Below, one piece after another: positions 20,761 to 45,530 of a DNA stretch of 64,000 nucleotides (position 1 is its first letter; every line of letters begins with the position of its first letter). This stretch comes from Escherichia coli (GTDB taxonomy: Bacteria > Pseudomonadota > Gammaproteobacteria > Enterobacterales > Enterobacteriaceae): assembly GCF_029227855.1 (NCBI RefSeq), contig NZ_CP074356.1; one strand, given 5' to 3'. The notes beneath the pieces were generated by a model, which saw nothing but the letters and a program-made list of their open reading frames with translations, did no database searches and had not been told where the DNA came from. The translations under genes were made by a program, and so were the position numbers.

Positions 20761-21031
20761 TATCTTTCCCCTGAAAAATTCAAAATCATTAATATAGAAA
20801 CAGTTAATCATCACGTTACCGGGACTGCGCTGCCCCTGCAATTCTTCATTTTATCAAAATTGAGCATGTTTTGTTAACTTGCTGATATTTAATATTTTAT
20901 TATCTTTAAATGTAAATAGTTTGTTAATTAGATCACATTTACATCACTTACTTTTGCCAAACTACGCAATCGGGAATAAAAGTAATCATTAACATATTAA
21001 TGATTAAGATGATCGAATCCGAGGAGTGGTA

Positions 21032-23784: not shown

Positions 23785-23785
23785 T

Positions 23786-24637
23786 ATGGGTAAGTTAGCG
23801 TTAGCCGCCAAAATCACGCACGTACCGTCGATGTATCTCTCTGAACTACCAGGGAAAAACCACGGTTGCCGCCAGGGTGCGATCGACGGGCATAAAGAGA
23901 TCAGCAAGCGTTGCCGGGAAATGGGCGTCGATACCATTATCGTTTTCGATACTCACTGGCTGGTCAACAGTGCTTATCACATCAACTGTGCAGACCATTT
24001 TGAAGGCGTCTACACCAGCAACGAGCTGCCGCATTTTATTCGTGACATGACCTACAACTACGAGGGCAACCCGGAGTTGGGGCAGCTTATTGCCGATGAA
24101 GCCTTAAAACTCGGCGTGCGGGCAAAAGCGCACAACATTCCCAGCCTGAAACTGGAATACGGCACGCTGGTGCCAATGCGCTACATGAATGAAGACAAGC
24201 ACTTCAAAGTGGTCTCCATTTCGGCTTTCTGCACGGTTCACGATTTTGCCGACAGCCGCAAGCTTGGCGAAGCGATTTTGAAAGCAATCGAACAGTACGA
24301 CGGCACCGTGGCGGTCCTTGCCAGCGGTTCGTTATCGCACCGCTTTATTGACGATCAGCGTGCGGAAGAAGGGATGAACAGCTACACCCGCGAGTTCGAC
24401 CGCCAGATGGACGAGCGCGTGGTGAAGCTGTGGCGCGAAGGCCAGTTCAAAGAGTTCTGCAATATGCTGCCGGAGTACGCCGACTACTGCTACGGCGAAG
24501 GCAATATGCACGACACGGTGATGCTGCTGGGGATGCTCGGCTGGGATAAATACGACGGCAAGGTGGAGTTTATCACCGAGCTGTTCCCAAGCTCCGGTAC
24601 TGGTCAGGTTAACGCTGTTTTCCCGCTTCCCGCGTAA
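23786..24637 (+). CDS. hpaD: 3,4-dihydroxyphenylacetate 2,3-dioxygenase (extradiol)
   Basis: 283 aa, LigB-type extradiol dioxygenase, cluster context. Confidence 0.85.
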   Translation: MGKLALAAKITHVPSMYLSELPGKNHGCRQGAIDGHKEISKRCREMGVDTIIVFDTHWLVNSAYHINCADHFEGVYTSNELPHFIRDMTYNYEGNPELGQLIADEALKLGVRAKAHNIPSLKLEYGTLVPMRYMNEDKHFKVVSISAFCTVHDFADSRKLGEAILKAIEQYDGTVAVLASGSLSHRFIDDQRAEEGMNSYTREFDRQMDERVVKLWREGQFKEFCNMLPEYADYCYGEGNMHDTVMLLGMLGWDKYDGKVEFITELFPSSGTGQVNAVFPLPA

Positions 24638-24646
24638 GGACGTTTT

Positions 24647-25027
24647 ATGCCGCACTTTATCGTTGAATGTACTGAAAATATTCGTGAAGAAGCCCGCTTA
24701 CCTGAGCTGTTTGCCAGTGTTAACACTGCACTGGCGGCGACGGGGATTTTTCCGCTTGGGGGAATACGTAGCCGGGCGCACTGGATCGATACCTGGCAAA
24801 TGGCTGATGGCAAGCACGATTACGCCTTTGTGCATATGACGCTAAAAATCGGCAGCGGGCGCAGTCTGGAAAGCCGTCAGGAAGTGGGCGAAATGGTGTT
24901 TGATCTGATTAAAACGCACTTCGCCTCACTGATGGAGAGCCGTTACCTGGCGCTTTCATTTGAGATTGCAGAGCTGCACCCGACGTTGAATTTCAAACAG
25001 AACAACGTACACGCGTTGTTTAAATAA
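24647..25027 (+). CDS. hpaF: 5-carboxymethyl-2-hydroxymuconate isomerase
   Basis: 126 aa [16 protein letters not shown]... Confidence 0.85.
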
Positions 25028-25094
25028 ATTTGTACCAGCTTCCAGGCCGGATGATAAGGCGCAGCCGCATCCGGCAATGCCACAGGATATCGCC

Positions 25095-25898
25095 ATGTTC
25101 GATAAACACACCCACACCCTGATCGCCCAGCGTCTGGATCAGGCAGAAAAACAGCGCGAACAGATCCGCGCGATCTCGCTGGATTACCCGGAGATCACCA
25201 TCGAAGATGCCTACGCCGTACAGCGCGAATGGGTCCGCCTGAAAATTGCCGAAGGCCGTACGCTGAAAGGCCACAAAATCGGCCTGACCTCGAAAGCGAT
25301 GCAGGCCAGCTCACAAATCAGCGAACCGGATTACGGCGCGCTGCTGGACGACATGTTCTTCCACGATGGCAGCGATATCCCGACCGATCGCTTTATCGTG
25401 CCGCGCATTGAAGTGGAGCTGGCTTTCGTGCTGGCAAAACCGCTGCGTGGGCCAAACTGCACGCTGTTCGACGTTTACAACGCCACGGACTATGTGATCC
25501 CGGCGCTGGAGCTGATCGACGCTCGCTGCCACAACATCGATCCGGAAACCCAGCGCCCGCGTAAAGTGTTCGACACCATTTCTGATAACGCCGCCAATGC
25601 CGGGGTGATCCTCGGTGGTCGTCCCATTAAGCCCGATGAGTTGGATCTGCGTTGGATCTCCGCCCTGATGTATCGTAATGGCGTGATTGAAGAAACTGGC
25701 GTCGCCGCTGGCGTGCTGAATCACCCGGCAAACGGCGTGGCCTGGCTGGCGAACAAACTCGCACCGTATGACGTACAACTGGAAGCCGGGCAAATCATTC
25801 TCGGCGGTTCGTTTACCCGCCCGGTTCCGGCGCGTAAGGGCGACACCTTCCACGTCGATTACGGCAACATGGGCTCCATTAGCTGCCGCTTTGTTTAA
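25095..25898 (+). CDS. hpaH: 2-oxo-hept-4-ene-1,7-dioate hydratase
   Basis: ORF 25077..25898; the 267-aa form starts [20 protein letters not shown]. Confidence 0.85.
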
Positions 25899-25908
25899 GG
25901 AGAGAACG

Positions 25909-26697
25909 ATGGAAAACAGTTTTAAAGCGGCGCTGAAAGCAGGCCGCCCGCAGATCGGATTATGGCTGGGGCTAAGTAGCAGCTACAGCGCAGAGTTACT
26001 GGCCGGAGCAGGATTCGACTGGTTATTGATCGACGGTGAGCACGCGCCGAATAACGTGCAAACCGTGCTCACCCAGCTACAGGCGATTGCGCCCTACCCC
26101 AGCCAGCCGGTAGTACGTCCATCGTGGAACGATCCGGTGCAAATCAAACAACTGCTGGACGTCGGCACACAAACCTTACTGGTGCCGATGGTACAAAACG
26201 CCGACGAAGCCCGTGAAGCGGTACGCGCCACCCGTTATCCCCCCGCCGGTATTCGCGGTGTGGGCAGTGCGCTGGCTCGCGCCTCGCGCTGGAATCGCAT
26301 TCCTGATTACCTGCAAAAAGCCAACGATCAAATGTGCGTGCTGGTGCAAATCGAAACGCGTGAGGCAATGAAGAACTTACCGCAGATTCTGGACGTGGAA
26401 GGGGTCGACGGCGTGTTTATCGGCCCGGCGGATCTGAGCGCCGATATGGGTTATGCCGGTAATCCGCAGCACCCGGAAGTACAGGTCGCCATTGAGCAGG
26501 CGATCGTGCAGATCCGCGAAGCGGGCAAAGCGCCGGGGATCCTGATCGCCAATGAGCAACTGGCAAAACGCTATCTGGAACTGGGCGCGCTATTTGTCGC
26601 CGTCGGCGTTGACACCACCCTGCTCGCCCGCGCCGCCGAAGCGCTGGCAGCACGGTTTGGCGCGCAGGCCACGACCGTTAAGCCCGGCGTGTATTAA
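25909..26697 (+). CDS. hpaI: 4-hydroxy-2-oxo-heptane-1,7-dioate aldolase
   Basis: 262 aa from [22 protein letters not shown]; class II aldolase family. Confidence 0.85.
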
Positions 26698-26806
26698 TGT
26701 CGATCCGGCCTACACGCGCACTAAACCATAGGCTGGATAAGACGTTTACGCCGCATCCGCCATAAACCTTGTCGTACCCTACAAAAATCCCATTAGAGGA
26801 AGAAAA

Positions 26807-28183
26807 ATGAGCGACACCTCACCTGCCATACCGGAGAGTATCGATCCGGCGAATCAGCATAAAGCGCTGACTACCGGACAACAGGCGGTTATTAAGAAGC
26901 TGTTTCGCCGCCTGATCGTCTTTCTGTTCGTGCTGTTTATCTTCTCGTTCCTTGATCGCATCAACATCGGCTTTGCCGGGCTAACGATGGGACGCGACCT
27001 CGGTCTGAGCGCCACCATGTTTGGCCTCGCCACCACCCTGTTCTATGCCGCTTATGTCATCTTCGGCATTCCCAGCAACATTATGCTGAGTATTGTCGGT
27101 GCGCGGCGCTGGATCGCCACCATCATGGTGCTCTGGGGCATCGCCTCTACGGCCACCATGTTTGCCACTGGCCCCACCAGCTTATACGTACTGCGTATAC
27201 TGGTTGGCATTACCGAAGCCGGCTTTCTGCCTGGCATTCTGCTGTATTTAACCTTCTGGTTTCCGGCCTATTTCCGCGCCCGTGCCAACGCCTTGTTTAT
27301 GGTAGCAATGCCGGTAACGACAGCGCTGGGATCGATCGTTTCCGGCTACATTTTGTCGCTGGATGGCGTAATGGCATTAAAAGGCTGGCAGTGGCTGTTT
27401 TTGCTGGAAGGCTTCCCGTCGGTATTACTCGGCGTCATGGTGTGGTTCTGGCTTGATGACTCACCGGACAAAGCTAAGTGGCTGACGAAAGAAGACAAAA
27501 AATGCCTGCAAGAGATGATGGATAACGATCGTCTGACGCTGGTTCAGCCAGAGGGAGCCATCAGTCACCACGCCATGCAACAACGCAGCATGTGGCGGGA
27601 GATCTTCACTCCGGTGGTGATGATGTATACCCTGGCGTATTTCTGCCTGACCAACACACTTAGTGCAATCAGCATCTGGACACCGCAGATCCTACAAAGC
27701 TTTAATCAGGGCAGCAGTAATATCACCATCGGCCTGCTGGCCGCCGTACCGCAGATTTGTACCATTCTCGGGATGATCTACTGGAGCCGTCACTCAGATC
27801 GCCGCCAGGAACGAAGGCATCACACCGCCCTTCCTTATTTGTTCGCTGCCGCTGGTTGGTTACTGGCTTCGGCAACTGATCACAACATGATCCAGATGCT
27901 GGGGATCATTATGGCTTCGACCGGATCATTCAGCGCAATGGCGATTTTCTGGACAACACCGGATCAGTCCATCAGCCTGCGGGCACGAGCGATCGGTATT
28001 GCGGTGATCAACGCCACTGGCAACATTGGTTCAGCGTTAAGTCCGTTTATGATCGGCTGGTTGAAAGATCTGACCGGCAGCTTTAACAGTGGATTGTGGT
28101 TTGTTGCCGCGCTGCTGGTGATTGGTGCGGGGATTATCTGGGCAATTCCAATGCAGTCCTCCCGTCCGCGAGCGACCCCGTAA
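26807..28183 (+). CDS. hpaX: MFS 4-hydroxyphenylacetate transporter
   Basis: 458 aa, 12 predicted membrane spans, between hpaI and hpaA. Confidence 0.85.
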   Translation: MSDTSPAIPESIDPANQHKALTTGQQAVIKKLFRRLIVFLFVLFIFSFLDRINIGFAGLTMGRDLGLSATMFGLATTLFYAAYVIFGIPSNIMLSIVGARRWIATIMVLWGIASTATMFATGPTSLYVLRILVGITEAGFLPGILLYLTFWFPAYFRARANALFMVAMPVTTALGSIVSGYILSLDGVMALKGWQWLFLLEGFPSVLLGVMVWFWLDDSPDKAKWLTKEDKKCLQEMMDNDRLTLVQPEGAISHHAMQQRSMWREIFTPVVMMYTLAYFCLTNTLSAISIWTPQILQSFNQGSSNITIGLLAAVPQICTILGMIYWSRHSDRRQERRHHTALPYLFAAAGWLLASATDHNMIQMLGIIMASTGSFSAMAIFWTTPDQSISLRARAIGIAVINATGNIGSALSPFMIGWLKDLTGSFNSGLWFVAALLVIGAGIIWAIPMQSSRPRATP

Positions 28184-28192
28184 GGAACGACG

Positions 28193-29083
28193 ATGTGTGA
28201 CCGTCAGATTGCCAATATTGATATCAGCAAAGAGTACGATGAAAGCCTGGGCACGGACGATGTGCATTATCAGTCCTTCGCCCGCATGGCGGCCTTTTTT
28301 GGCCGCCATATGCTGCCACATCGCCACGAACAGTACTTTCAGATGCATTTCCTCAATAGCGGACAGATTGAGCTACAGCTTGACGATCATCGCTACTCGG
28401 TGGAAGCGCCCCTGTTTGTCCTGACGCCGCCGTCAGTACCTCATGCGTTTATTACGGAGTCTGACGCCGACGGTCATGTGTTGACGGTACGGGAAGATCT
28501 GATCTGGCCCCTGCTGGAAGTTCTTTATCCGGGCACTCGGGAAACCTTCGGCCTGCCGGGGATTTGCCTGTCACTGGCAGATAAACCCGACGAACTGGCG
28601 GCGCTGGAACACTATTGGCAACTGATAGAGCGGGAATCGGTGGAACAACTGCCTGGACGGGAACACACCCTGACGCTACTGGCACAGGCAGTGTTCACCC
28701 TACTGCTGCGTAACGCAAAACTCGACGACCATGCCGCCAGCGGAATGCGCGGAGAATTAAAACTGTTCCAGCGTTTTCATATGCTGATTGAAAGCCATTT
28801 TCACCAGCACTGGACAGTACCGGATTACGCTAACGAACTGCATATCACCGAATCACGCCTCACGGACATCTGCCGCCGCTTTGCCAACCGTCCGCCAAAA
28901 CGGTTGATTTTCGACAGGCAGCTGCGAGAAGCCAAGCGGCTGCTGCTGTTTTCTGATAACGCCGTGAACAATATTGCCTGGCAACTCGGTTTTAAGGATC
29001 CGGCTTATTTTGCGCGCTTTTTTAATCGTTTAGTCGGTTGCTCGCCCAGTGCTTACCGTGCCAAAAAAGTACCTGTGACGTGA
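28193..29083 (+). CDS. hpaA: AraC/XylS-family activator of hpaBC
   Basis: 296 aa with C-terminal AraC-type HTH (NIAWQLGFKDPAYFARFF). Confidence 0.85.
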   Translation: MCDRQIANIDISKEYDESLGTDDVHYQSFARMAAFFGRHMLPHRHEQYFQMHFLNSGQIELQLDDHRYSVEAPLFVLTPPSVPHAFITESDADGHVLTVREDLIWPLLEVLYPGTRETFGLPGICLSLADKPDELAALEHYWQLIERESVEQLPGREHTLTLLAQAVFTLLLRNAKLDDHAASGMRGELKLFQRFHMLIESHFHQHWTVPDYANELHITESRLTDICRRFANRPPKRLIFDRQLREAKRLLLFSDNAVNNIAWQLGFKDPAYFARFFNRLVGCSPSAYRAKKVPVT

Positions 29084-29333
29084 AAATCCCTTAGCCTTAA
29101 CGGGAAACCAGGCATCACCTGCTATTCCTCTTTCTCCGCCTGGAGCAAGGGGATTTAGTAACGTCAAAAATAGCTAAAAGCGACCTCGATCACAAAACCG
29201 TACCCGACCTGAAAAGTACCAGCCATTGTCCCAAAAGTGTCTTCCCGTAATCGCCCCTGCAAGCTTCAATTGAATAACAAAAACAACACACAAAATTAAC
29301 AATCGTATTCCGATTAATACTGTAGAGGTCGAC

Positions 29334-30896
29334 ATGAAACCAGAAGATTTCCGCGCCAGTACCCAACGTCCGTTCACCGGGGAAGAGTATCTGAAAAGCC
29401 TGCAGGATGGTCGCGAGATCTATATCTATGGCGAGCGAGTGAAAGACGTCACCACTCATCCGGCATTTCGTAATGCGGCAGCGTCTGTTGCCCAACTGTA
29501 CGACGCGCTGCACAAACCGGAGATGCAGGACTCTCTGTGTTGGAACACCGACACCGGCAGCGGCGGCTATACCCATAAATTCTTCCGCGTGGCGAAAAGT
29601 GCCGACGACCTGCGCCAGCAACGCGACGCCATCGCTGAGTGGTCACGCCTGAGCTATGGCTGGATGGGCCGTACCCCAGACTACAAGGCTGCTTTCGGTT
29701 GCGCACTGGGCGCGAATCCGGGCTTTTACGGTCAGTTCGAGCAGAACGCCCGTAACTGGTACACCCGTATTCAGGAAACTGGCCTCTACTTTAACCACGC
29801 GATTGTTAACCCACCGATCGATCGTCATTTGCCGACCGATAAAGTGAAAGACGTTTACATCAAGCTGGAAAAAGAGACTGACGCCGGGATTATCGTCAGC
29901 GGTGCGAAAGTGGTTGCCACCAACTCGGCGCTGACTCACTACAACATGATTGGCTTCGGCTCGGCACAAGTGATGGGCGAAAACCCGGACTTCGCACTGA
30001 TGTTCGTTGCGCCAATGGATGCCGATGGCGTGAAATTAATCTCCCGCGCCTCTTATGAGATGGTCGCGGGTGCTACCGGCTCCCCGTACGACTACCCGCT
30101 CTCCAGCCGCTTCGATGAGAACGATGCGATTCTGGTGATGGATAACGTGCTGATCCCATGGGAAAACGTGCTGATCTACCGCGATTTTGATCGCTGCCGT
30201 CGCTGGACGATGGAAGGCGGTTTCGCCCGTATGTATCCGCTGCAAGCCTGTGTACGCCTGGCAGTGAAACTCGACTTCATTACGGCACTGCTGAAAAAAT
30301 CACTCGAATGTACCGGCACCCTGGAGTTCCGTGGTGTGCAGGCCGATCTCGGTGAAGTGGTGGCGTGGCGCAACACCTTCTGGGCATTGAGTGACTCGAT
30401 GTGTTCAGAAGCGACACCATGGGTCAACGGTGCTTATTTACCGGATCATGCCGCACTGCAAACCTATCGCGTACTGGCACCAATGGCCTACGCGAAGATC
30501 AAAAACATTATCGAACGCAACGTTACCAGTGGCCTGATCTATCTCCCTTCCAGTGCCCGTGACCTGAACAATCCGCAGATCGACCAGTATCTGGCGAAGT
30601 ATGTGCGCGGTTCGAATGGTATGGATCACGTCCAGCGCATCAAGATCCTCAAACTGATGTGGGATGCCATTGGCAGCGAGTTTGGTGGTCGTCACGAGCT
30701 GTATGAAATCAACTACTCCGGTAGCCAGGATGAGATTCGCCTGCAGTGTCTGCGCCAGGCACAAAGCTCCGGCAATATGGACAAGATGATGGCGATGGTT
30801 GATCGCTGCCTGTCGGAATACGACCAGAACGGCTGGACTGTGCCGCACCTGCACAACAACGACGATATCAACATGCTGGATAAGCTGCTGAAATAA
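29334..30896 (+). CDS. hpaB: 4-hydroxyphenylacetate 3-monooxygenase, oxygenase component
   Basis: 520 aa MKPEDFRASTQRPFTGEEYLKSLQDGREIYIYGERVKDVTTHPAFRN. Confidence 0.9.
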   Translation: MKPEDFRASTQRPFTGEEYLKSLQDGREIYIYGERVKDVTTHPAFRNAAASVAQLYDALHKPEMQDSLCWNTDTGSGGYTHKFFRVAKSADDLRQQRDAIAEWSRLSYGWMGRTPDYKAAFGCALGANPGFYGQFEQNARNWYTRIQETGLYFNHAIVNPPIDRHLPTDKVKDVYIKLEKETDAGIIVSGAKVVATNSALTHYNMIGFGSAQVMGENPDFALMFVAPMDADGVKLISRASYEMVAGATGSPYDYPLSSRFDENDAILVMDNVLIPWENVLIYRDFDRCRRWTMEGGFARMYPLQACVRLAVKLDFITALLKKSLECTGTLEFRGVQADLGEVVAWRNTFWALSDSMCSEATPWVNGAYLPDHAALQTYRVLAPMAYAKIKNIIERNVTSGLIYLPSSARDLNNPQIDQYLAKYVRGSNGMDHVQRIKILKLMWDAIGSEFGGRHELYEINYSGSQDEIRLQCLRQAQSSGNMDKMMAMVDRCLSEYDQNGWTVPHLHNNDDINMLDKLLK

Positions 30897-30913
30897 CGCA
30901 GCAGGAGGTTAAG

Positions 30914-31426
30914 ATGCAATTAGATGAACAACGCCTGCGCTTTCGTGACGCGATGGCCAGCCTGTCGGCAGCGGTAAATATTATCACCACCGAGGGCGAC
31001 GCCGGACAATGCGGGATTACGGCAACGGCCGTCTGCTCGGTCACGGATACACCACCATCGCTGATGGTGTGCATTAACGCCAACAGTGCGATGAACCCGG
31101 TTTTTCAGGGCAACGGCAAGTTGTGCGTCAACGTCCTCAACCATGAGCAGGAACTGATGGCACGCCACTTCGCGGGCATGACGGGCATGGCGATGGAAGA
31201 GCGTTTTAGCCTCTCATGCTGGCAAAAAGGTCCGCTGGCGCAGCCGGTGCTGAAAGGTTCGCTGGCCAGTCTTGAAGGTGAGATCCGCGATGTGCAGGCA
31301 ATTGGCACACATCTGGTGTATCTGGTGGAGATTAAAAACATCATCCTCAGTGCAGAAGGTCACGGACTTATCTACTTTAAACGCCGTTTCCATCCGGTGA
31401 TGCTGGAAATGGAAGCTGCGATTTAA
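30914..31426 (+). CDS. hpaC: 4-hydroxyphenylacetate 3-monooxygenase, flavin reductase component
   Basis: 170 aa MQLDEQRLRFRDAMASLSAAVNIITTEG. Confidence 0.9.
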   Translation: MQLDEQRLRFRDAMASLSAAVNIITTEGDAGQCGITATAVCSVTDTPPSLMVCINANSAMNPVFQGNGKLCVNVLNHEQELMARHFAGMTGMAMEERFSLSCWQKGPLAQPVLKGSLASLEGEIRDVQAIGTHLVYLVEIKNIILSAEGHGLIYFKRRFHPVMLEMEAAI

Positions 31427-31432
31427 GCTCCA

Positions 31433-31468
31433 GCCCCTTCACGCATTCGTCGAAGGGGCATTTTTATT
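31433..31468 (+). terminator. Rho-independent terminator after hpaC
   Basis: ccccttcacgcattcgtcgaagggg hairpin followed by catttttatt. Confidence 0.6.
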
Positions 31469-31511
31469 GTGATCTCAATCACATATCCACCCGATGAATA
31501 ATTCTTGCCCA

Positions 31512-31539
31512 ACCGCTCACCGCCATTCCTGACCGCTTA
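31512..31539 (+). promoter_or_regulatory. Candidate BtsR (YehT) operator: direct repeat ACCGCTCA ... ACCGCTTA upstream of btsT
   Basis: Two ACC(G/A)CT(C/T)A copies with a 12-nt spacer about 280 nt upstream of the btsT start; site assignment from memory of the yjiY promoter. Confidence 0.4.
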
Positions 31540-31818
31540 CGTCCCTAAAATAACCACTCAGTTATTTACCTTACTTTACGCGCGCGTAACTCTGGCAACA
31601 TCACTGCAGGATAGCGGTCAATTTACCTCCTCAAACGCAACGCAAACCTAGAACGGCTTCGGCCTATGATTAACAAATTACTCTATGGATTTTGGTTTGC
31701 AGGAAGGCAGCAAGTGAGTGAATCCCCGGGAGCTTACAACAGTAAGTGACAGGGGTGAACGAACGCAGCTGCCGCACCTGTAAGCCAAAAGACGACGAGT
31801 AAAATGCCAGGTTTTACT

Positions 31819-33969
31819 ATGGATACGAAAAAACTATTCAAGCACATACCCTGGGTGATTCTCGGAATCATCGGTGCATTCTGCCTCGCGGTAGTTGCAT
31901 TACGTCGGGGGGAGCACGTCAGCGCCCTGTGGATCGTGGTCGCCTCTGTGTCGGTGTATCTGGTGGCGTATCGCTACTACAGTCTGTACATCGCCCAGAA
32001 GGTGATGAAACTCGACCCCACGCGCGCGACGCCTGCGGTTATTAACAACGACGGTCTGAACTACGTTCCGACCAACCGTTACGTGTTGTTTGGTCACCAC
32101 TTCGCCGCTATCGCCGGTGCTGGTCCGCTGGTCGGTCCGGTTCTCGCCGCACAGATGGGCTACCTGCCTGGCACGCTGTGGCTGCTGGCGGGGGTAGTGC
32201 TGGCCGGTGCGGTACAGGACTTTATGGTGCTGTTTATCTCCTCTCGCCGTAACGGCGCATCTCTCGGTGAGATGATCAAAGAAGAGATGGGACCAGTACC
32301 GGGGACTATCGCGCTGTTTGGCTGTTTCTTAATCATGATCATCATCCTCGCCGTTCTGGCGCTGATTGTGGTTAAAGCCCTGGCCGAAAGTCCGTGGGGT
32401 GTCTTCACCGTTTGCTCAACCGTACCAATTGCGCTGTTTATGGGTATCTACATGCGCTTTATCCGTCCGGGGCGTGTGGGTGAAGTCTCTGTCATTGGTA
32501 TCGTGCTGCTGGTTGCCTCTATCTACTTCGGTGGCGTGATTGCTCACGATCCGTACTGGGGTCCGGCACTGACCTTTAAAGACACCACCATTACCTTCGC
32601 GCTGATTGGCTATGCGTTTGTTTCCGCGCTGCTGCCGGTGTGGCTGATCCTCGCACCACGCGACTATCTGGCAACCTTCCTGAAAATCGGCGTTATCGTC
32701 GGCCTGGCGCTGGGTATCGTGGTGCTGAACCCGGAACTGAAAATGCCTGCGATGACCCAGTACATTGACGGTACTGGCCCGCTGTGGAAAGGCGCTCTGT
32801 TCCCGTTCCTGTTCATCACCATCGCCTGTGGTGCGGTATCTGGCTTCCACGCACTGATCTCTTCCGGTACGACGCCGAAACTGCTGGCTAACGAAACCGA
32901 CGCGCGTTTCATTGGCTACGGCGCAATGCTGATGGAGTCCTTCGTGGCGATTATGGCGCTGGTTGCTGCGTCCATCATCGAACCGGGTCTTTACTTCGCG
33001 ATGAACACCCCGCCTGCTGGCCTTGGCATCACCATGCCTAACCTGCATGAAATGGGTGGCGAGAACGCGCCGATCATCATGGCGCAGCTGAAAGACGTTA
33101 CCGCACACGCGGCAGCGACCGTCAGCTCCTGGGGCTTCGTGATTTCGCCAGAGCAGATCCTGCAAACCGCGAAAGACATTGGTGAGCCTTCTGTCCTGAA
33201 CCGTGCAGGTGGTGCGCCGACGCTGGCGGTAGGTATCGCTCACGTGTTCCACAAAGTGCTGCCGATGGCTGACATGGGCTTCTGGTATCACTTCGGTATT
33301 CTGTTCGAAGCCCTGTTCATCCTGACCGCGCTGGATGCGGGTACTCGTTCTGGCCGCTTTATGCTGCAAGACCTGCTGGGTAACTTCATCCCGTTCCTGA
33401 AAAAAACCGACTCTCTGGTTGCTGGTATCATCGGTACTGCGGGCTGTGTGGGTCTGTGGGGCTACCTGCTGTATCAGGGCGTGGTCGATCCGCTGGGCGG
33501 CGTTAAGAGCCTGTGGCCGCTGTTCGGTATCTCCAACCAGATGCTGGCAGCCGTGGCGCTGGTACTGGGTACCGTTGTGCTGATTAAGATGAAGCGCATC
33601 CAATACATCTGGGTAACTGTTGTTCCGGCTGTATGGCTGCTTATCTGCACCACCTGGGCGCTGGGTCTGAAACTGTTCAGTACCAACCCGCAGATGGAAG
33701 GCTTCTTCTACATGGCAAGCCAGTACAAAGAGAAGATTGCTAACGGTACTGACCTGACGGCGCAGCAGATTGCCAACATGAACCACATCGTTGTGAACAA
33801 CTACACCAACGCAGGCCTGAGTATTCTGTTCCTGATTGTGGTGTACAGCATCATCTTCTACGGTTTCAAAACTTGGCTTGCGGTGCGTAACAGCGACAAA
33901 CGTACTGACAAAGAAACACCGTACGTTCCAATCCCGGAAGGCGGCGTGAAGATCTCTTCGCACCACTAA
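31819..33969 (+). CDS. btsT: CstA-family pyruvate/H+ symporter
   Basis: ORF 31804..33969; the 716-aa form starts MDTKKLFKHIPWVILG; multi-span membrane protein. Confidence 0.9.
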   Translation: MDTKKLFKHIPWVILGIIGAFCLAVVALRRGEHVSALWIVVASVSVYLVAYRYYSLYIAQKVMKLDPTRATPAVINNDGLNYVPTNRYVLFGHHFAAIAGAGPLVGPVLAAQMGYLPGTLWLLAGVVLAGAVQDFMVLFISSRRNGASLGEMIKEEMGPVPGTIALFGCFLIMIIILAVLALIVVKALAESPWGVFTVCSTVPIALFMGIYMRFIRPGRVGEVSVIGIVLLVASIYFGGVIAHDPYWGPALTFKDTTITFALIGYAFVSALLPVWLILAPRDYLATFLKIGVIVGLALGIVVLNPELKMPAMTQYIDGTGPLWKGALFPFLFITIACGAVSGFHALISSGTTPKLLANETDARFIGYGAMLMESFVAIMALVAASIIEPGLYFAMNTPPAGLGITMPNLHEMGGENAPIIMAQLKDVTAHAAATVSSWGFVISPEQILQTAKDIGEPSVLNRAGGAPTLAVGIAHVFHKVLPMADMGFWYHFGILFEALFILTALDAGTRSGRFMLQDLLGNFIPFLKKTDSLVAGIIGTAGCVGLWGYLLYQGVVDPLGGVKSLWPLFGISNQMLAAVALVLGTVVLIKMKRIQYIWVTVVPAVWLLICTTWALGLKLFSTNPQMEGFFYMASQYKEKIANGTDLTAQQIANMNHIVVNNYTNAGLSILFLIVVYSIIFYGFKTWLAVRNSDKRTDKETPYVPIPEGGVKISSHH

Positions 33970-33977
33970 CCGTGTTT

Positions 33978-34005
33978 AGCCCCGCTTCGGCGGGGCTTTG
34001 TTCTT
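33978..34005 (+). terminator. Rho-independent terminator after btsT
   Basis: agccccgcttcggcggggct hairpin followed by ttgttctt. Confidence 0.6.
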
Positions 34006-34018
34006 ATCAGAGTGAACT

Positions 34019-34222
34019 ATGTTTGGTAACTTAGGACAGGCAAAAAAATATCTCGGCCAGGCGGCGAAGATGTTGATTGGCATTCCAGACTACGACAACT
34101 ACGTCGAGCATATGAAGACCAACCATCCCGACAAGCCGTACATGAGCTATGAAGAATTCTTCCGCGAACGCCAGAATGCACGCTACGGCGGCGATGGTAA
34201 AGGCGGTATGCGCTGTTGTTAA
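34019..34222 (+). CDS. yjiX: Small conserved protein YjiX
   Basis: 67 aa [48 protein letters not shown]. Confidence 0.8.
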
Positions 34223-34231
34223 TGGAGAGAG

Positions 34232-35189
34232 CATGAACCCGATTGCAGTTACCCTACTCACCGGTTTTTTAGGCGCGGGCAAAACCACCCTGCTGCGCCA
34301 TATTCTTAACGAACAACACGGCTACAAGATTGCCGTGATTGAAAACGAATTCGGCGAAGTCTCCGTTGATGATCAACTGATTGGCGACCGCGCCACGCAG
34401 ATCAAAACGCTGACCAACGGCTGCATCTGCTGTTCGCGCTCCAACGAGCTGGAAGACGCACTACTCGACCTGCTGGATAATCTCGACAAGGGCAATATTC
34501 AGTTCGACCGTCTGGTCATTGAATGCACCGGCATGGCCGATCCCGGCCCGATTATTCAGACCTTTTTCTCCCATGAGATTTTATGCCAGCGTTACCTGCT
34601 GGACGGTGTGATTGCGCTGGTGGATGCGGTACATGCCGACGAGCAGATGAACCAGTTCACCATCGCCCAGTCCCAGGTTGGCTACGCCGACCGTATTCTG
34701 CTGACCAAAACCGACGTCGCAGGCGAAGCAGAAAAACTGCGTGAACGCCTGGCGCGCATCAACGCCCGTGCACCGGTCTACACCGTCACCCACGGCGACA
34801 TCGACCTGGGCCTGCTGTTCAACACCAACGGTTTTATGCTGGAAGAGAACGTCGTCAGCACCAAACCGCGTTTCCACTTTATCGCGGATAAACAAAACGA
34901 TATTTCGTCGATTGTGGTAGAACTGGATTACCCGGTAGATATCAGCGAAGTTTCCCGGGTGATGGAAAACCTGCTTCTGGAATCGGCAGATAAACTGCTG
35001 CGTTACAAAGGGATGCTGTGGATTGACGGCGAACCTAACCGCCTGCTGTTCCAGGGCGTCCAGCGCCTCTACAGCGCCGACTGGGACCGCCCGTGGGGCG
35101 ATGAAAAACCACATAGCACAATGGTGTTTATCGGGATTCAGTTGCCGGAGGAAGAGATTCGGGCAGCGTTTGCGGGGTTGAGGAAGTAA
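34232..35189 (+). CDS. yjiA: CobW/G3E-family GTPase YjiA
   Basis: 318 aa with P-loop GFLGAGKTTLL and CICC metal-binding motif. Confidence 0.9.
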
Positions 35190-35200
35190 TTTTGGATGAT

Positions 35201-35234
35201 GGCCGCCATGTGGCGGCCTGAATTATTTTTTGTT
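35201..35234 (+). terminator. Terminator hairpin between convergent yjiA and brnA
   Basis: ggccgccatgtggcggcc inverted repeat followed by tgaattattttttg. Confidence 0.5.
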
Positions 35235-35525
35235 CTGATCGCGCAGCATCGCTTCACGTAAAATTGCGTTCAGGCGAGTTTGATAGCCTTTACCTGGTCG
35301 CTTCAACCATTCCATCACATCAGCATCAATACGCACCGAAGCCTGAGTTTTCAATGGCCGATAAAACTTACCGCGTTCGGCGTTAGACCATTGCTCATCG
35401 CTGGAAGGTGGGATATCACTGTAATCAATATCTTCGTCGGATTTATTCGTCAGCGCCTTCAGTTCGGCCTCATGCTGCACATCGAGTGTAGAGGAGGTCC
35501 CTCGTTTATGTTTAACCATGCTCAT
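35223..35525 (-). CDS. brnA: BrnA-like antitoxin (DUF4415-type small DNA-binding protein)
   Basis: ORF 35223..35666; about 100 aa from MSMVKHKRG...; C-terminus ...RIDADVMEWLKRPGKGYQTRLNAILREAM matches the BrnA family; start overlaps brnT stop. Confidence 0.7.
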   Translation of the reverse strand: MSMVKHKRGTSSTLDVQHEAELKALTNKSDEDIDYSDIPPSSDEQWSNAERGKFYRPLKTQASVRIDADVMEWLKRPGKGYQTRLNAILREAMLRDQNKK

Positions 35526-35808
35526 AGCGATTCCTCTCTTTACGATCTGCTTTTCGTGCACTGATGATTCGAATAATTTCATTTCCGCTTTCGAAACGGA
35601 TGGTATGCGCAACCAGAATAACCACGATGCCGTAAACCAGGCCGATTGTCTGCCAGCGATACTCACCGTTTTCTATGCGTTCTTGCTGTGACAAATGTTG
35701 TGGATCATCAAACAATAACACCGCATCTTCAAAGCGGATGCCATGTTTCACCCGATTACTTTTGGCCTTGTTTTCATCCCATTCAAACTCCATTGGCATA
35801 ATTGCCAT
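35512..35808 (-). CDS. brnT: BrnT-like toxin (DUF497, RelE-fold ribonuclease)
   Basis: ORF 35512..35826 (TTG start); from first ATG: MAIMPMEFEWDENKAKSNRVKHGIRFEDA...IRIISARKADRKERNRYE, the BrnT signature. Confidence 0.7.
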   Translation of the reverse strand: MAIMPMEFEWDENKAKSNRVKHGIRFEDAVLLFDDPQHLSQQERIENGEYRWQTIGLVYGIVVILVAHTIRFESGNEIIRIISARKADRKERNRYEHG

Positions 35809-35997
35809 CCCTAATTGTATATACAAAAATGTATCTACAATTATTCTGCAATTATAGCGTTGATGTTGGAAATAGCATCACGTTTCGAATAATCAACCAT
35901 GAAATTGACAATGAGTAAGTTGGACTTGATTCATCCAATAGAATTTCTCGCCTGACATGGCACACTAAACACCTCGCTGTCGGGTAATGACTCCAAC

Positions 35998-36500
35998 TTA
36001 CTGATAGTGTTTTATGTTCAGATAATGCCCGATGACCTTGTCATGCAGCTCCACCGATTTTGAGAACGACAGTGACTTCCGTCCCAGCCTTGCCAGATGT
36101 TGTCTCAGATTCAGATTATGTCGCTCAATGCGCTGAGTGTAACGCTTGCTGATAACGTGCAGCTTTCCCTTCAGGCGTGATTCATACAGCGGCCAGCCAT
36201 CCGTCATCTATACTACGACCTCAAAGGCCGACAGCAGGCTCAGAAGACGCTCCAGTGTGGCCAGAGTGCGTTCACCGAAGACGTGGCCACAACCGTCTTC
36301 CGAAGCCTGTCATACGCGTAAAACAGCCAGCGCTGGCGCGATTTAGCCCCGACATAGCCCCACTGTTCGTCCATTTCCGCGCAGATAATCACATCACTGC
36401 CCGGTTGTATGCGCGAGGTTACCGACTGCGGCCTGAGTTTTTTAAGTGACGTAAAACCGTGTTGAGGCCAACGCCCATAATGCGTGCACTGGCGCGACAT
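35998..36500 (-). pseudogene. insB: IS1 insB frame, disrupted (1-nt deletion relative to copy 2 gives a premature stop; split into two ORFs)
   Basis: Track ORFs 36240..36500 and 35998..36207; protein diverges from InsB after ...[12 protein letters not shown] and stops; direct comparison with copy 2 shows a 1-nt gap. Confidence 0.6.
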
Positions 36501-36694
36501 CCGACGCCATTCATGGCCATATCAATGATTTTCTGGTGCGTACCGGGCTGAGAGGCGGTGTAAGTGAACTGCAGTTGCCATGTTTTACGGCAATGAGAGC
36601 AGAGATAGCGCTGATGTCCGGCAGTGCTTTTGCCGTTACGCACCACGCCTTCAGTAGCGGAGCAGGAAGGACATCTGATGGAAATGGAAGCCAC
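36419..36694 (-). CDS. insA: IS1 InsA
   Basis: 91 aa [43 protein letters not shown]. Confidence 0.9.
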
Positions 36695-37007
36695 GCAAGC
36701 ACCTTAAAATCACCATCATACACTAAATCAGTAAGTTGGCAGCATTACCAAATTTTAATTACACTTAAGGTGTATATTTTCTATGCAAGCCATCAATTAA
36801 AGAGGTGTAATGTGCTGATGACTATTTGTAATCGTTATACATTCTGACCTGGAGTCAGAAGGTATTTCTCTGTCTGTGTATTCGCAGGCAGTGTGGTTGA
36901 TTACATGAAATTCAGTACATTTGTCCTTCTCGCCTGCCTTTCGTCATTACCGACGGTATTGAATTTCGTTTTCCCCATTGGGTTCTCCGGACAAGGAGTT
37001 GTTTGTT

Positions 37008-38240
37008 ATGCCACGTTTTTTTGCCCGCCATGCCGCCACGCTGTTTTTCCCGATGGCGTTGATTTTGTATGACTTTGCTGCGTATCTGTCGACGGACCTG
37101 ATCCAGCCAGGGATCATTAATGTGGTCCGTGATTTTAATGCCGATGTCAGTCTGGCCCCGGCTGCCGTCAGTCTCTATCTCGCTGGAGGCATGGCATTGC
37201 AGTGGCTGCTGGGGCCGCTTTCCGACAGGGTTGGCCGCAGGCCGGTGCTGATTACCGGGGCGCTAATATTTACCCTTGCCTGCGCTGCGACAATGTTCAC
37301 AACGTCTATGACACAGTTTCTTATCGCGCGTGCAATTCAGGGCACCAGTATCTGTTTTATTGCCACCGTTGGTTATGTCACGGTGCAGGAGGCGTTCGGA
37401 CAGACAAAAGGGATCAAGTTGATGGCGATTATCACCTCCATCGTACTGATTGCGCCGATTATTGGCCCGCTTTCCGGCGCAGCTCTGATGCACTTTGTGC
37501 ACTGGAAAGTCCTTTTTGCCATCATTGCGGTTATGGGTTTTATCTCATTTGTTGGCTTACTGCTGGCGATGCCAGAGACGGTGAAGCGCGGCGCGGTTCC
37601 ATTTAGCGCCAAAAGCGTCTTGCGCGATTTTCGTAATGTCTTTTGCAATCGGCTGTTCCTCTTTGGCGCAGCAACCATCTCTTTAAGCTATATCCCCATG
37701 ATGAGTTGGGTGGCTGTCTCGCCGGTGATCCTGATCGACGCGGGCGGCTTAACAACTTCGCAGTTCGCCTGGACACAGGTTCCGGTGTTCGGCGCGGTGA
37801 TTGTCGCGAATGCCATCGTGGCGCGTTTCGTTAAAGATCCGACCGAACCGCGCTTTATCTGGCGTGCCGTACCCCTTCAACTGGTTGGCCTCGCGCTGTT
37901 GATTATCGGCAATCTGCTGTCACCGCACGTCTGGCTGTGGTCGGTGCTGGGCACCAGTCTGTATGCTTTCGGGATTGGTTTGATTTTCCCGACCTTATTC
38001 CGCTTTACGCTGTTTTCCAATAACTTACCGAAAGGGACCGTCTCCGCATCGCTGAATATGGTGATCCTGATGGTGATGTCTGTCTCGGTCGAAATCGGCC
38101 GCTGGCTGTGGTTTAACAGCGGTCGCTTGCCGTTTCATCTGTTAGCCGTTGTGGCAGGCGTTATCGTCGTTTTCACCCTGGCCGGATTGCTTAATCGCGT
38201 GCGCCAACATCAGGCTGCCGAGCTGGCGGAGGAGCGGTGA
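37008..38240 (+). CDS. mdtM: MFS multidrug efflux protein MdtM
   Basis: ORF 36978..38240; the 410-aa form starts [23 protein letters not shown]. Confidence 0.85.
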
Positions 38241-38280
38241 TTTTTGCGCGATCCTGCCGTCAGGCTCTATTCTTAACATT

Positions 38281-39561
38281 ATGAATAAACTCATTGAACT
38301 CAGACGCGCCAAAATGTTGGCGCTCTCTTTACTGCTTATCGCCGCTGCTACCTTTGTCGTTACGCTGTTTTTGCCGCCCAATTTTTGGGTGAGCGGCGTG
38401 AAGGCGATTGCTGAAGCGGCGATGGTCGGCGCGCTGGCGGACTGGTTTGCGGTGGTGGCGCTGTTTCGCCGCGTGCCGATTCCGATCATTTCTCGTCATA
38501 CGGCGATTATTCCGCGTAATAAAGACCGGATTGGCGAAAATCTCGGCCAGTTCGTGCAGGAAAAATTTCTCGATACCCAATCGCTGGTGGCATTGATTCG
38601 ACGTCACGAACCGGCGTTGTTGATTGGCAACTGGTTTAGTCAGCCAGAAAACGCCCGCCGCGTTGGTCAGCATCTGTTGCAGATCATGAGCGGTTTTCTT
38701 GAACTAACCGATGATGCGCGTATTCAGCGCCTGCTTAAGCGCGCGGTCCACCGGGCGATTGATAAAGTCGATCTTTCTGGCACCAGTGCGTTGATGCTGG
38801 AGAGTATGACTAAAAACGATCGTCATCAGGTGCTGCTGGATACGCTGATCGCACAGTTGATCGCCCTTCTCCAGCGCGATAAATCGCGCAAGTTTATTGC
38901 CCAGCAAATTGTTCGCTGGCTGGAGAGCGAGCATCCACTGAAAGCCAAAATTTTGCCCACTGAATGGCTGGGCGAACATAGCGCGGAGTTGGTTTCTGAC
39001 GCGGTGAATTCTTTGCTTGATGATATCAGCCGCGATCGTGCGCATCAGATCCGCCATGCGTTTGATCGCGCTACCTTCGCCCTGATCGAGAAACTGAAAA
39101 ACGATCCGGAAATGGCGGCGCGAGCCGATGCCGTAAAAAGCTATCTGAAAGAAGATGAAGCTTTTAACCGCTATCTCAGTGAATTGTGGGGGGATTTACG
39201 GGAATGGCTGAAAGCGGATATCAACAGTGAAGATTCTCGTGTGAAAGAACGTATCGCGCGGGCTGGTCAATGGTTTGGCGAAACGTTAATTGCCGATGAT
39301 GCCTTGCGGGCGTCGTTAAATGGTCATCTGGAACAAGCCGCACACCGCATTGCGCCTGAGTTTTCCGCATTCCTGACTCGCCATATCAGCGACACGGTAA
39401 AAAGCTGGGACGCACGGGACATGTCGCGGCAAATCGAGTTAAATATCGGCAAAGATCTCCAGTTTATCCGTGTCAACGGTACGCTGGTTGGCGGTTGTAT
39501 TGGACTTATTTTGTATTTGCTGTCGCAGCTCCCGGCCTTGTTCCCCCTCGGCAATTTATAG
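38281..39561 (+). CDS. yjiN: DUF445 membrane-associated protein YjiN
   Basis: ORF 38149..39561; the 426-aa form starts [19 protein letters not shown]. Confidence 0.8.
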
Positions 39562-39676
39562 AAATCCATGAAAAACTAAGTGGCTAACCGCGAGAGAGAT
39601 CAAATAAACCACACTAAAAGAATGGTAATAATGTGGCCTCTTTTCATTATCTCCCGTGGTACGGGGAAGGAAAATC

Positions 39677-41605
<1,929 letters not shown>

Positions 41606-41776
41606 AAGAGTATCTGTTTTTATTTCACTCCACGGTCGGCGTCATACAAACCCGCAAGGCGTTGCAGGCAGCGGGCATGACTTTTCGCGTCAGCGATATT
41701 CCCCGTGATTTACGCGGCGGCTGCGGGTTATGCATTTGGCTGACCTGTCCGCCTGGCGAGGAAATTCAATGGGTGA

Positions 41777-42784
<1,008 letters not shown>

Positions 42785-42851
42785 CAGGCTGGCATGTTTC
42801 ACCTTTTTGTTATTAACTTGTTAACAACAAAAATGACAAACAAGGTTAAAC

Positions 42852-44030
42852 ATGCCTTCGCCCTCGCATCCCGTAGAACGCTTTTCTTTCAGCACCGCGC
42901 TTTTCGGGATGCTGGTTCTGACCTTAGGTATGGGTTTAGGCCGCTTCCTTTATACGCCTATGTTGCCCGTCATGATGGCGGAAGGATCGTTTTCATTTAG
43001 CCAGCTCTCGTGGATTGCCAGCGGCAACTATGCGGGGTATCTGGCTGGCAGTCTGCTATTTTCGTTTGGCGCATTTCACCAGCCATCGCGCCTGCGCCCA
43101 TTTCTGTTGGCTTCTGCCCTGGCGAGCGGGTTGTTGATCCTCGCAATGGCATGGTTGCTGCCATTTATTCTGGTGTTATTGATTCGCGTCCTGGCGGGTG
43201 TCGCCAGCGCCGGTATGCTGATTTTTGGTTCGACGCTGATTATGCAGCACACGCGCCATCCTTTTGTGCTGGCAGCTTTGTTTTCTGGCGTTGGCATTGG
43301 CATCGCACTGGGCAATGAATATGTTCTGGCAGGCCTGCATTTTGACCTCTCCTCGCAAACGTTATGGCAAGGCGCCGGGGCGCTTTCTGGCATGATGCTG
43401 ATTGCACTTACGCTTTTAATGCCCTCGAAAAAACACGCCATCACACCAATGCCATTGGCAAAAACGGAGCAACAGATAATGAGCTGGTGGTTACTGGCTA
43501 TTCTGTACGGCCTGGCGGGATTTGGTTATATCATCGTCGCGACTTACCTGCCGCTCATGGCGAAAGATGCAGGCTCACCATTGTTAACCGCCCATCTCTG
43601 GACGTTAGTCGGCTTATCAATTGTGCCTGGTTGCTTTGGCTGGCTATGGGCAGCAAAACGTTGGTGGGCTTTGCCCTGCCTGACGGCGAATTTGCTGGTG
43701 CAGGCTATCTGTGTGCTGCTTACTCTCGCCAGCGACTCGCCTCTCTTGCTTATCATCAGCAGTCTTGGTTTTGGCGGTACCTTTATGGGCACGACATCTC
43801 TGGTGATGACTATCGCCCGCCAACTGAGCGTACCGGGAAATCTCAATCTTTTAGGCTTTGTGACGCTCATTTACGGCATTGGACAAATCCTCGGCCCGGC
43901 GCTGACCAGTATGCTCGGCAATGGAACATCGGCGCTTGCCGGCGCCACTCTCTGCGGCGCGGCGGCGTTGTTTATTGCTGCGCTTATCAGCACAGTACAA
44001 TTATTTAAGCTGCAAGTGGTCACTTCATGA
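42852..44030 (+). CDS. yjiJ: MFS-type membrane protein YjiJ
   Basis: 392 aa multi-span membrane protein. Confidence 0.8.
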
Positions 44031-44042
44031 GGAGTGTTTCCC

Positions 44043-44597
44043 TTACCACTCAAGAAATTCGACCGCAACCGTTGATGTCAGCCAGACCCCGTTTTCCGCT
44101 TGCCAGAAAGGGAGGCCTCGTTTCGCCATTTCCTGTGCTTTGACGGTTAAAATAACCGGCGATCCGTGTCTTGCTCCCACTTTGCGTGCCGTTGCTTCAT
44201 CAGCAGAGAGATGTACGTAGTGACGCTCACCTGCAATCAGCCCCTGTTTTTTTATCTCGTCAAGGAAACGGCTTGCCGTACCGTGGTAGAGAAACTGTGG
44301 CGGTGTTTTTTCGGCAAAGGAAATAGCGACCTGCGAAGTCGAATGCCCCTGAACCGCGCGGATGCACCTACCATCACTGGAATAACTAAAACGCTTTTTA
44401 TCGCTGGTGGCAACCACGGTATCCAGCAATGCACGGGTTAACCGCTTGCCCGCTTTTTGGGCACAAAGTATGAGCTTATCGATATCCGCCCATCCTTCAC
44501 GGTCCAGTACGATACCAATCGCCTCCGGTTTGTGTCGGAGGACAAAACTTAAAAACTTGCTCGTATCCGCCAGCTCTTTTTCGTTGTACTTTGCCAT
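44043..44597 (-). CDS. kptA: RNA 2'-phosphotransferase (Tpt1 family)
   Basis: 184 aa [42 protein letters not shown]. Confidence 0.9.
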
Positions 44598-44846
44598 CGC
44601 GTTTTCGTCCCTGGATTATCTGTTTTTTATTTACTATGTCATTGTCACTGGGTTTATGAATTTTCTGCAACTCAATCCTGCGTAGAACCTTTTCCACACA
44701 GCGTAATTTTACCGCTATGCAAAAAACGCATAGTCAGAAACATACTTGCATTTTCCCCATACCCACATCGCTGATAAGGTTTTTCAGCTCCAGGAATTTT
44801 CCTGGCTCAAGCAACACACAAACACAAAAAAACAATGGGGATTGTT

Positions 44847-45530
44847 ATGACACAACAAGGGGATGCTGTAGCCGGGGAGCTGGCGACAGAAAAAGTGGGC
44901 ATTAAAGGGTATCTGGCTTTTTTTCTCACCATAATCTTTTTTTCCGGTGTTTTTTCCGGGACAGACAGTTGGTGGCGCGTTTTTGATTTTTCCGTTCTGA
45001 ACGGATCGTTTGGGCAACTGCCTGGTGCGAACGGAGCCACCACCTCGTTTCGCGGCGCGGGTGGCGCGGGGGCTAAAGATGGCTTTCTCTTTGCGCTGGA
45101 GCTGGCACCGTCAGTCATTCTCTCTCTGGGGATTATTTCAATTACCGATGGTCTTGGCGGATTACGCGCCGCGCAGCAGTTAATGACGCCAGTGCTAAAA
45201 CCGTTGTTGGGCATTCCAGGGATCTGCTCGCTGGCGCTGATCGCTAACCTGCAAAACACCGATGCCGCCGCAGGTATGACCAAAGAGCTGGCGCAGGAAG
45301 GTGAAATTACCGAACGCGATAAAGTGATTTTCGCCGCATATCAAACCAGCGGTAGCGCCATTATCACCAACTACTTCTCTTCCGGCGTCGCGGTGTTTGC
45401 CTTTCTGGGCACGTCCGTAATCGTACCTTTAGCAGTCATCCTGGTGTTTAAATTTGTCGGAGCCAACATTTTGCGCGTCTGGCTTAACTTCGAAGAACGT
45501 CGCAACCCAACGCAAGGAGCGCAAGCATGA
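44847..45530 (+). CDS. yjiH: Inner-membrane protein YjiH
   Basis: ORF 44835..45530; likely start MTQQGDAVAGELA; overlaps yjiG start. Confidence 0.75.
   Translation: MTQQGDAVAGELATEKVGIKGYLAFFLTIIFFSGVFSGTDSWWRVFDFSVLNGSFGQLPGANGATTSFRGAGGAGAKDGFLFALELAPSVILSLGIISITDGLGGLRAAQQLMTPVLKPLLGIPGICSLALIANLQNTDAAAGMTKELAQEGEITERDKVIFAAYQTSGSAIITNYFSSGVAVFAFLGTSVIVPLAVILVFKFVGANILRVWLNFEERRNPTQGAQA

Follow-up and report, generated by a model that had tools for sequence, protein, structure and literature searches.

What became of the immigration control region in the Escherichia coli strain studied here? In a K-12-lineage genome, the interval between yjiA and mdtM measures about 19.4 kb and is annotated with mrr, hsdR, hsdM, hsdS, symE, mcrB, mcrC, yjiV/T remnants, yjiS, yjiR and rpn, which is the content that an earlier note on this DNA had given for K-12. 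In the DNA analysed here, a stretch of 64,000 nucleotides from contig NZ_CP074356.1 (hereafter the window, to which all positions refer unless another locus is named), only 1.8 kb separate the end of yjiA (35189) from the start of mdtM (37008), and this space contains only brnA, brnT and a copy of the insertion sequence IS1. Here we report which island preceded this arrangement, where its ends lie, how widely the arrangement is distributed among complete E. coli genomes, and by which route it may have arisen.

The variability of the island was reviewed in 2025 over 8,424 enterobacterial loci, of which only 36% contain type I systems (PMC12707154); a state free of restriction-modification genes is therefore common. 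The arrangement in the window is real but ordinary: it results routinely from known processes, and the annotations of hundreds of public genomes already include it.

Gene content of the interval

The left conserved anchor of the region is yjiA (34233-35189, plus strand), which encodes a CobW-family GTPase; it matches the NF008578 equivalog model over its full length (683 bits) and is named yjiA in identical RefSeq loci. The right conserved anchor is yjiN (38281-39561, plus strand; DUF445), whose position was transferred from the identical E24377A annotation and whose role as an anchor follows PMC12707154. The first gene to the right of the collapsed island is mdtM (37008-38240, plus strand), which encodes a multidrug efflux transporter of the MFS type and was identified by a full-length match to the NF011932 equivalog model (855 bits) and by the RefSeq annotation. 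Its open reading frame opens at an in-frame TTG at 36978, upstream of the ATG at 37008; the end coordinate of the interval in the earlier note, 36977, is one base before this TTG. The flanks follow the gene order of annotated genomes (btsT-yjiX-yjiA on the left, mdtM-yjiN-yjiM on the right), and the interval lies between the anchors yjiA and yjiN that mark the immigration control region (PMC12707154).

The type I and/or type IV restriction genes that characterize such a region are absent from positions 35190-37007. All open reading frames of at least 40 amino acids in this interval represent brnA, brnT, fragments of insA/insB or overlapping shadow frames; no hsd, mrr or mcr gene is among them. 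The coordinates, the list of open reading frames and the profile matches thus agree with what the earlier note had described, namely a gap of about 1.8 kb that contains only brnTA and IS1 and lacks restriction genes of type I and type IV. Rfam models matched three tRNAs in the whole window and no RNA in the yjiA-mdtM interval. In E24377A and 042, the DNA is 100% identical, and RefSeq lists only BrnA, BrnT and an IS1 pseudogene between yjiA and mdtM. The identity of E24377A to the window extends over 2.4 kb, with 35 differing sites over 11.5 kb, and an 11.5-kb hpa cluster located between tsr and btsT in the window is absent from E24377A. For positions 19000-43000 as a whole, the best match among complete genomes does not exceed 97.7%.

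The toxin-antitoxin pair is encoded on the minus strand and consists of brnT (35512-35799; predicted ribonuclease-type toxin, 95 aa) and brnA (35223-35525; type II antitoxin, 100 aa). The toxin gene is located upstream of the antitoxin gene on the same strand, and the two overlap by 14 nt, which is the small, overlapping, toxin-first layout of a two-gene system. Both proteins match their Pfam family models over the full model length (BrnT: PF04365 BrnT_toxin, 1-77/77, E = 4.7e-24; BrnA: PF14384 BrnA_antitoxin, 1-68/68, E = 3.1e-17), and RefSeq names them 'BrnT family toxin' (WP_001297643.1) and 'BrnA antitoxin family protein' (WP_000063160.1). No NCBIfam or PADLOC model matched either protein. 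The brnAT pair is named, together with symE/symR and rpn, among the resident toxin-antitoxin systems of the yjiA-yjiN island (PMC12707154).

The insertion sequence

The remainder of the interval is dominated by a decayed insertion sequence of the IS1F type (35983-36749, minus strand; 767 bp), which was characterized by alignment to an intact IS1F from O157:H7, by the RefSeq note, by profile matches of insA and by the list of open reading frames. Its termini, GGTAATGACTCCAACTTACTGAT and ATCAGTAAGTTGGCAGCATTACC, are both identical to the ends of the intact element, and its length and intact terminal inverted repeats fit the IS1 family (about 768 bp, with imperfect repeats of about 23 bp). Over its whole length, the copy is about 98% identical to intact IS1F. 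The substitutions are clustered inside the element and, in this alignment, look like conversion patches; gene conversion among IS1 copies evidently occurs, to judge from this clustering.

The insA gene is open (36419-36694) and matches model NF050000 above its cut-off and model NF033558 below its cut-off. The insB gene has acquired a TGG-to-TAG stop and lost 1 bp, so that only fragments at 36240-36500 and 35998-36207 remain, and RefSeq flags the IS1 in identical loci as 'frameshifted; internal stop'. The element lacks the intact insA/insB pair that is expressed as InsAB' by a programmed -1 frameshift, and its reading frames mark it as an IS1F-type relic, a pseudogene without autonomy.

The 9 bp to the left of the element read TCGCTGTCG and the 9 bp to its right read AAATTTTAA. 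The two have essentially nothing in common, so that the missing target-site duplication reported in the earlier note is indeed missing, as expected for a deletion derivative.

The lost island and its endpoints

Loci that carry brnTA next to a complete island are present in the B2 strain O6:K2:H1 C 691-04A and in strain R12, and were used as intact comparison loci. Their gene order is yjiA-brnA-brnT-(Mrr-like type IV gene)-hsdMSR-symE-yjiS-yjiR-rpn-mdtM. In C 691-04A, mdtM follows the Rpn gene; in R12, yjiN comes next after the Rpn gene, and no mdtM is annotated. The block formed by yjiA, brnA, brnT and the brnT upstream region is collinear with the inspected intact loci of the B2 type and 97-98% identical to them up to the IS1 end.

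In blastn alignments with one of the comparison loci (L004), window positions 31804-35982 correspond to L004 16615-20793, and window positions 36749-45478 correspond to L004 32063-40793. The IS1 stands in place of L004 20794-32062, that is, of 11,269 bp, and the homology of the flanks to intact brnTA loci ends exactly at both IS1 ends. On the left, the retained upstream region of brnT (35800-35982) can be aligned collinearly with the B2 and R12 loci as far as ...CTCGCTGTCG, where the IS1 sequence takes over; in intact loci, the Mrr-like gene has its GTG start 13 nt beyond this endpoint (35982). On the right, the native upstream region of mdtM (36750-37007) is a remnant of the divergent rpn-mdtM intergenic region, and its alignment to B2 and K-12-like loci starts at CAAATTTTAATTAC. 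The right endpoint (36749/36750, where the base C at 36749 is common to IS1 and flank) is 258 bp upstream of mdtM and falls at an AT-rich site within the rpn-mdtM intergenic region.

According to RefSeq, the lost segment contains genes for a restriction endonuclease of 388 aa, hsdM, hsdS, hsdR, symE, yjiS, yjiR and Rpn. By PADLOC models, the first gene of the intact segment encodes a type IV mREase/Mrr-like protein, and those that follow include genes for a type I MTase and REase. The systems at the immigration control locus of CFT073, O157 and A0 34/86 (EcoAO83I) are of type IB (PMC2481252); this literature and the M-S-R gene order indicate that hsdMSR of comparison loci L004 and L005 is probably of type IB as well.

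The progenitor was a brnTA-bearing haplotype with an Mrr-like gene and hsdM-hsdS-hsdR, as in B2 strains, and not the K-12 island. The earlier note had used the K-12-type island as its comparator. This choice holds for the chromosomal slot and its neighbours, but fails for the progenitor; since K-12 has no brnTA, it is the wrong comparator for the island that was lost.

Distribution among complete genomes

The junctions were surveyed in 5426 complete E. coli genomes. The left junction, between the brnT flank and IS1, was present in identical form in 1112 of them. The right junction of the window, between IS1 and the position 258 bp upstream of mdtM, was found in 447 genomes (about 8%), including E24377A and 042, and a second right junction in 664. 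The two classes together (447 + 664 = 1111) account for essentially all of the 1112 left junctions, which leaves no room for a simple-insertion intermediate. A BLAST artefact was considered as the reason for the low count of the right junction (447 versus 1004/1112) and rejected, since the junctions of three aligned loci are identical; the cause is the second junction class. A synthetic query in which yjiA-brnTA was joined to the mdtM upstream region with no IS1 in between matched none of the 5426 genomes, nor did the same set contain an island that was intact except for an IS1 with its 9-bp duplication.

In the second class, which is represented, for example, by NCTC9966 and WEM25, the left junction is the same as that of the window. 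The IS1 there adjoins a copy of about 270 bp that comprises the 3' end of yghX, the intergenic region and the 5' end of yghW. This patch continues in frame into mdtM at about codon 6, where the join shows a microhomology, and it provides mdtM with a new 5' end and upstream region. The yghX-yghW locus is also present elsewhere in nearly all genomes, and in K-12 it is located far away. A 'dienelactone hydrolase' fragment in this class was considered as a piece of another island haplotype, but this was rejected because it is a copy of the yghX-yghW locus. The structure is not a plain adjacent deletion. The TGG-to-TAG stop is common to the IS1 copies of both classes, which places them in one element lineage.

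The 793-bp flank that extends from yjiA to the IS1 edge and includes brnTA is present in 2112 of the 5426 genomes, with at least 99% identity in 1088 genomes and 95-99% identity in 1023. The number of genomes in the upper band is close to that of the IS1 carriers (1112), and the intact B2-type loci that were inspected are found in the lower band; from these matching counts, we infer that the upper band represents IS1-bearing loci and the lower band intact ones. The distribution suggests a single origin of the IS1-bearing haplotype. The deletion is an inherited haplotype that is not private to the strain of the window but is present in 447 genomes, or in 1112 if the sister variant is included. 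Carriers also include several ETEC and STEC strains. We presume that E24377A, 042 and the ETEC and STEC carriers belong to different phylogroups; if so, recombination would have contributed to the spread of the haplotype in addition to descent.

Rearrangement by a window-type element in strain 720632

Strain 720632 has two copies of the 767-bp IS1 pseudogene in inverted orientation, one at each side of an inverted segment with mdtM, yjiN, yjiM, yjiL, ytiA and yjiK. The yjiJ gene is split, and the IS1 copies have an inverted 9-bp duplication in their flanks (GCAATCCAC / GTGGATTGC). These features identify the inversion as an intramolecular replicative transposition by the window-type IS1 pseudogene. 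The inversion with its inverted 9-bp duplication therefore shows that the dead IS1 can be mobilized in trans. Inversion and deletion are alternative outcomes of intramolecular replicative transposition.

Origin of the deletion

Whatever the route, it is very likely that IS1 is causally tied to the deletion of the brnTA-type island. The explanation that we consider probable is an inherited IS1 adjacent deletion, anchored beside brnTA at the brnT-side junction. In this scheme, an IS1 would have inserted beside the Mrr-like gene, immediately upstream of the promoter region of brnT. The mdtM-proximal end of the element would then have attacked, within the same molecule, the AT-rich site located 258 bp before mdtM, and both the DNA in between and one of the two copies of the duplication made by the insertion would have disappeared. 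The 11.3 kb that were lost included the genes for the Mrr-like type IV endonuclease, hsdM, hsdS, hsdR, symE, yjiS, yjiR and rpn. The precursor with a single IS1 is predicted to read IS1 end + TCGCTGTCG + TTAAGGGATTACCGTG. The element would have decayed to a pseudogene afterwards, and the haplotype would have spread by descent and recombination and been inherited by the strain of the window.

The constant IS1 junction, the loss of DNA up to an AT-rich target, the missing duplication and the occurrence of intramolecular transposition make adjacent deletion the best supported explanation. By what is established about IS1, the rearrangements that it promotes should leave one IS1 end fixed and the DNA past the opposite end variable. 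We infer the order of events and, as their cause, transposition rather than recombination between two IS1 copies.

Recombination between IS1 copies would nevertheless yield exactly the observed structure, an IS1 without a duplication, if two direct copies (one upstream of the Mrr-like gene, the other upstream of mdtM) had excised the cassette by homologous recombination and left a hybrid element. The genomes of E. coli are rich in IS1 (the median genome has about 10-11 places that match it), and the clustered substitutions within the element are as expected if copies exchange sequence. However, none of the 5426 genomes has a precursor with two IS1 copies or an IS1 inserted on the right in the absence of the left junction, and a fixed, outward-acting element accounts better than two independent pairs of insertions for the finding that one left junction is combined with another right junction unrelated to the first; we therefore regard this route as possible but unlikely. 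More improbable still is homology-facilitated illegitimate recombination, in which imported DNA would have been anchored by its IS1 on the resident IS1 and joined illegitimately at the other end, without transposase, so that the island was replaced. Such events are suggested by the sister class, with its microhomology join between yghW' and codon 6 of mdtM and its duplicated 270-bp patch from a distant locus, and the region is known for recombinational replacement (PMC12707154; PMC4498929). In the window, however, the right join lies at the exact terminal base of IS1 and at an AT-rich site, as an end-join by transposition, but not a random illegitimate join, would produce, and no donor configuration was found.

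A simple insertion of IS1 into a natively short yjiA-brnTA-mdtM locus, whose 9-bp duplication was later lost by mutation, is barely credible. Apart from the presence of an IS1, nothing speaks for it. In intact relatives, the two flanks are separated by 11,269 bp, and their homology stops exactly at the IS1 ends, which argues for an IS1-associated deletion; moreover, the empty joint occurs in 0 of 5426 genomes, and the flanking 9-mers (TCGCTGTCG and AAATTTTAA) are essentially unalike. Within the collection of 5426 genomes, simple insertion is refuted, and the preference of the earlier note for an IS1-associated deletion is borne out.

Points that weigh against the adjacent deletion are that no intermediate was found among the 5426 genomes, that recombination between two direct IS1 copies would give an identical product, that the second class has a structure of another kind, and that both junction classes share the stop codon. 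The shared stop has one of two explanations: either the second rearrangement took place after the death of the element, with transposase provided in trans, or the stop spread by gene conversion. As a tentative extension, which we hold to be rather doubtful, the IS1F relic next to brnTA might be a recurrent engine of rearrangements driven in trans, which made the deletion in the window, the variant in 664 genomes and at least one inversion, with the addictive brnTA pair limiting the extent of deletions.

Significance

For users of the strain, the locus shows that type I and type IV restriction systems are absent from the classical hsd/mcr site, which matters for transformation and for work with phages. 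The locus is also a clean natural example of a defence island that was erased by an insertion sequence while the adjacent toxin-antitoxin pair was spared. The variability of the island, its states without restriction-modification genes and the resident brnAT pair have already been reviewed, and no new question is opened by the present case. A search of the literature found no paper that derives the brnTA-IS1 haplotype.

Comparison with known systems

The toxin-antitoxin pair of the window resembles the BrnT/BrnA prototype of Brucella abortus, as far as sequence comparison goes, in the Pfam families of its proteins, in the position of the toxin gene in front of the antitoxin gene and in the overlap of the two genes. 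Like the classical adjacent deletions caused by IS1, the window has a single IS1 at a fixed junction, a loss of DNA on one side up to a new target, and no flanking duplication. In contrast to the classical cases, the element in the window is now a pseudogene, so that any recent activity would need transposase from other IS1 copies, and the deletion is a historical one that is read from sequence alone. IS1-promoted inversions are recognized by a doubling of the IS1 and an inverted 9-bp repeat, both of which are seen for the window-type element in strain 720632.

With respect to the island itself, the immigration control region of K-12 (98.6 min) occupies the same chromosomal slot as that of the window and has the same conserved neighbours, but it consists of about 19.4 kb with type IA and type IV systems and yji genes and has no brnTA, whereas the window contains 1.8 kb with brnTA and IS1. 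Restriction-less islands have been described for E. coli C, W and Crooks/ATCC 8739 (Sibley & Raleigh 2004, cited in PMC12707154; PMC3032704). In E. coli C, a DUF262 gene and an hsdR fragment precede yjiS-yjiR-rpn; ATCC 8739 has DUF262, IS3, a truncated hsdM, hsdS, symE and GmrSD-like genes; and E. coli W carries pac at the island (PMC3032704). None of the three has the brnTA-IS1 arrangement, and E. coli C and ATCC 8739, which were considered as matches to the window, were rejected because their structures differ. Nevertheless, E. coli C, W and Crooks/ATCC 8739 are, like the strain of the window, natural strains without a complete type I system at the island. Another known system close to the window is the haplotype with brnTA, the Mrr-like gene and hsdMSR, whose flanks are collinear with those of the window and which differs from it by the 11,269 bp that the window has lost and by the IS1F relic that the window has in their place.

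A second IS1 is located at the fim locus of the window (58573-59331; ranges noted with it, 57680-58540 and 59332-61417), with 98.6% identity to IS1A and open insA and insB frames. Compared with a K-12-lineage genome, it replaces approximately 6.7 kb, comprising the 5' two-thirds of fimD together with fimC, fimI, fimA, fimE, and fimB, and the replacement joins the C-terminal remnant of fimD to the nanC side. No target duplication was present around the element, which is flanked by CGTTTTTCG and TCGAACGTT. This is another IS1-associated deletion in the window, 22 kb from that between brnT and mdtM, and type 1 fimbriae are expected to be missing from this strain.

The dead IS1 next to mdtM contains two clusters of substitutions. 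At 36285-36386, nine clustered substitutions and a 1-bp deletion separate it from intact IS1F, and at 36386-36457, it has 9 differences in 72 bp from the locus of strain STN0717-20, to which it is otherwise identical. The sequence comparisons suggest that both clusters are gene-conversion patches exchanged between IS1 variants. The same element is present in two mutually inverted copies in strain 720632 (L008, the locus of this strain, 5760-13563), where, bordered by an inverted 9-bp duplication (GCAATCCAC), they enclose an inverted 6.3-kb segment from mdtM to yjiK; the target is the equivalent of window positions 43010-43018, in yjiJ. This structure is an intramolecular replicative transposition of the pseudogene IS, mobilised in trans.

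A sister haplotype, found in 664 of 5426 complete E. coli genomes, shares the brnT-IS1 junction of the window. Here, a duplicated piece of yghX-yghW of approximately 270 bp (L009 4848-5104 and L010 15738-15994, two loci of this haplotype) adjoins the IS1, the original yghX-yghW locus being distant, and is joined to mdtM at a short microhomology. The piece also supplies a new region upstream of mdtM, and the N-terminus of MdtM is replaced (MAGLKATHAA...). In the island of strain R12, mdtM is absent, while brnTA, the Mrr-like gene, and hsdMSR are intact; yjiN comes immediately after the Rpn gene (L005, the R12 locus, 30926-33312), and mdtM itself therefore belongs to the variable region.

Between tsr and btsT, the window carries an 11.5-kb cluster for 4-hydroxyphenylacetate catabolism (hpa; 20257-31803) with approximately 98% identity to the hpa cluster of E. 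coli C; E24377A, 042, and the B2 locus lack this cluster. The best match to window positions 19000-43000 among the complete E. coli genomes did not exceed 97.7%, and the strain that the window comes from is therefore not one of these genomes. The three tandem tRNA genes at 5441-5760 (84 nt each), which are all annotated as tRNA-Leu in the collinear locus of 042, are an ordinary leuQPV-type cluster.
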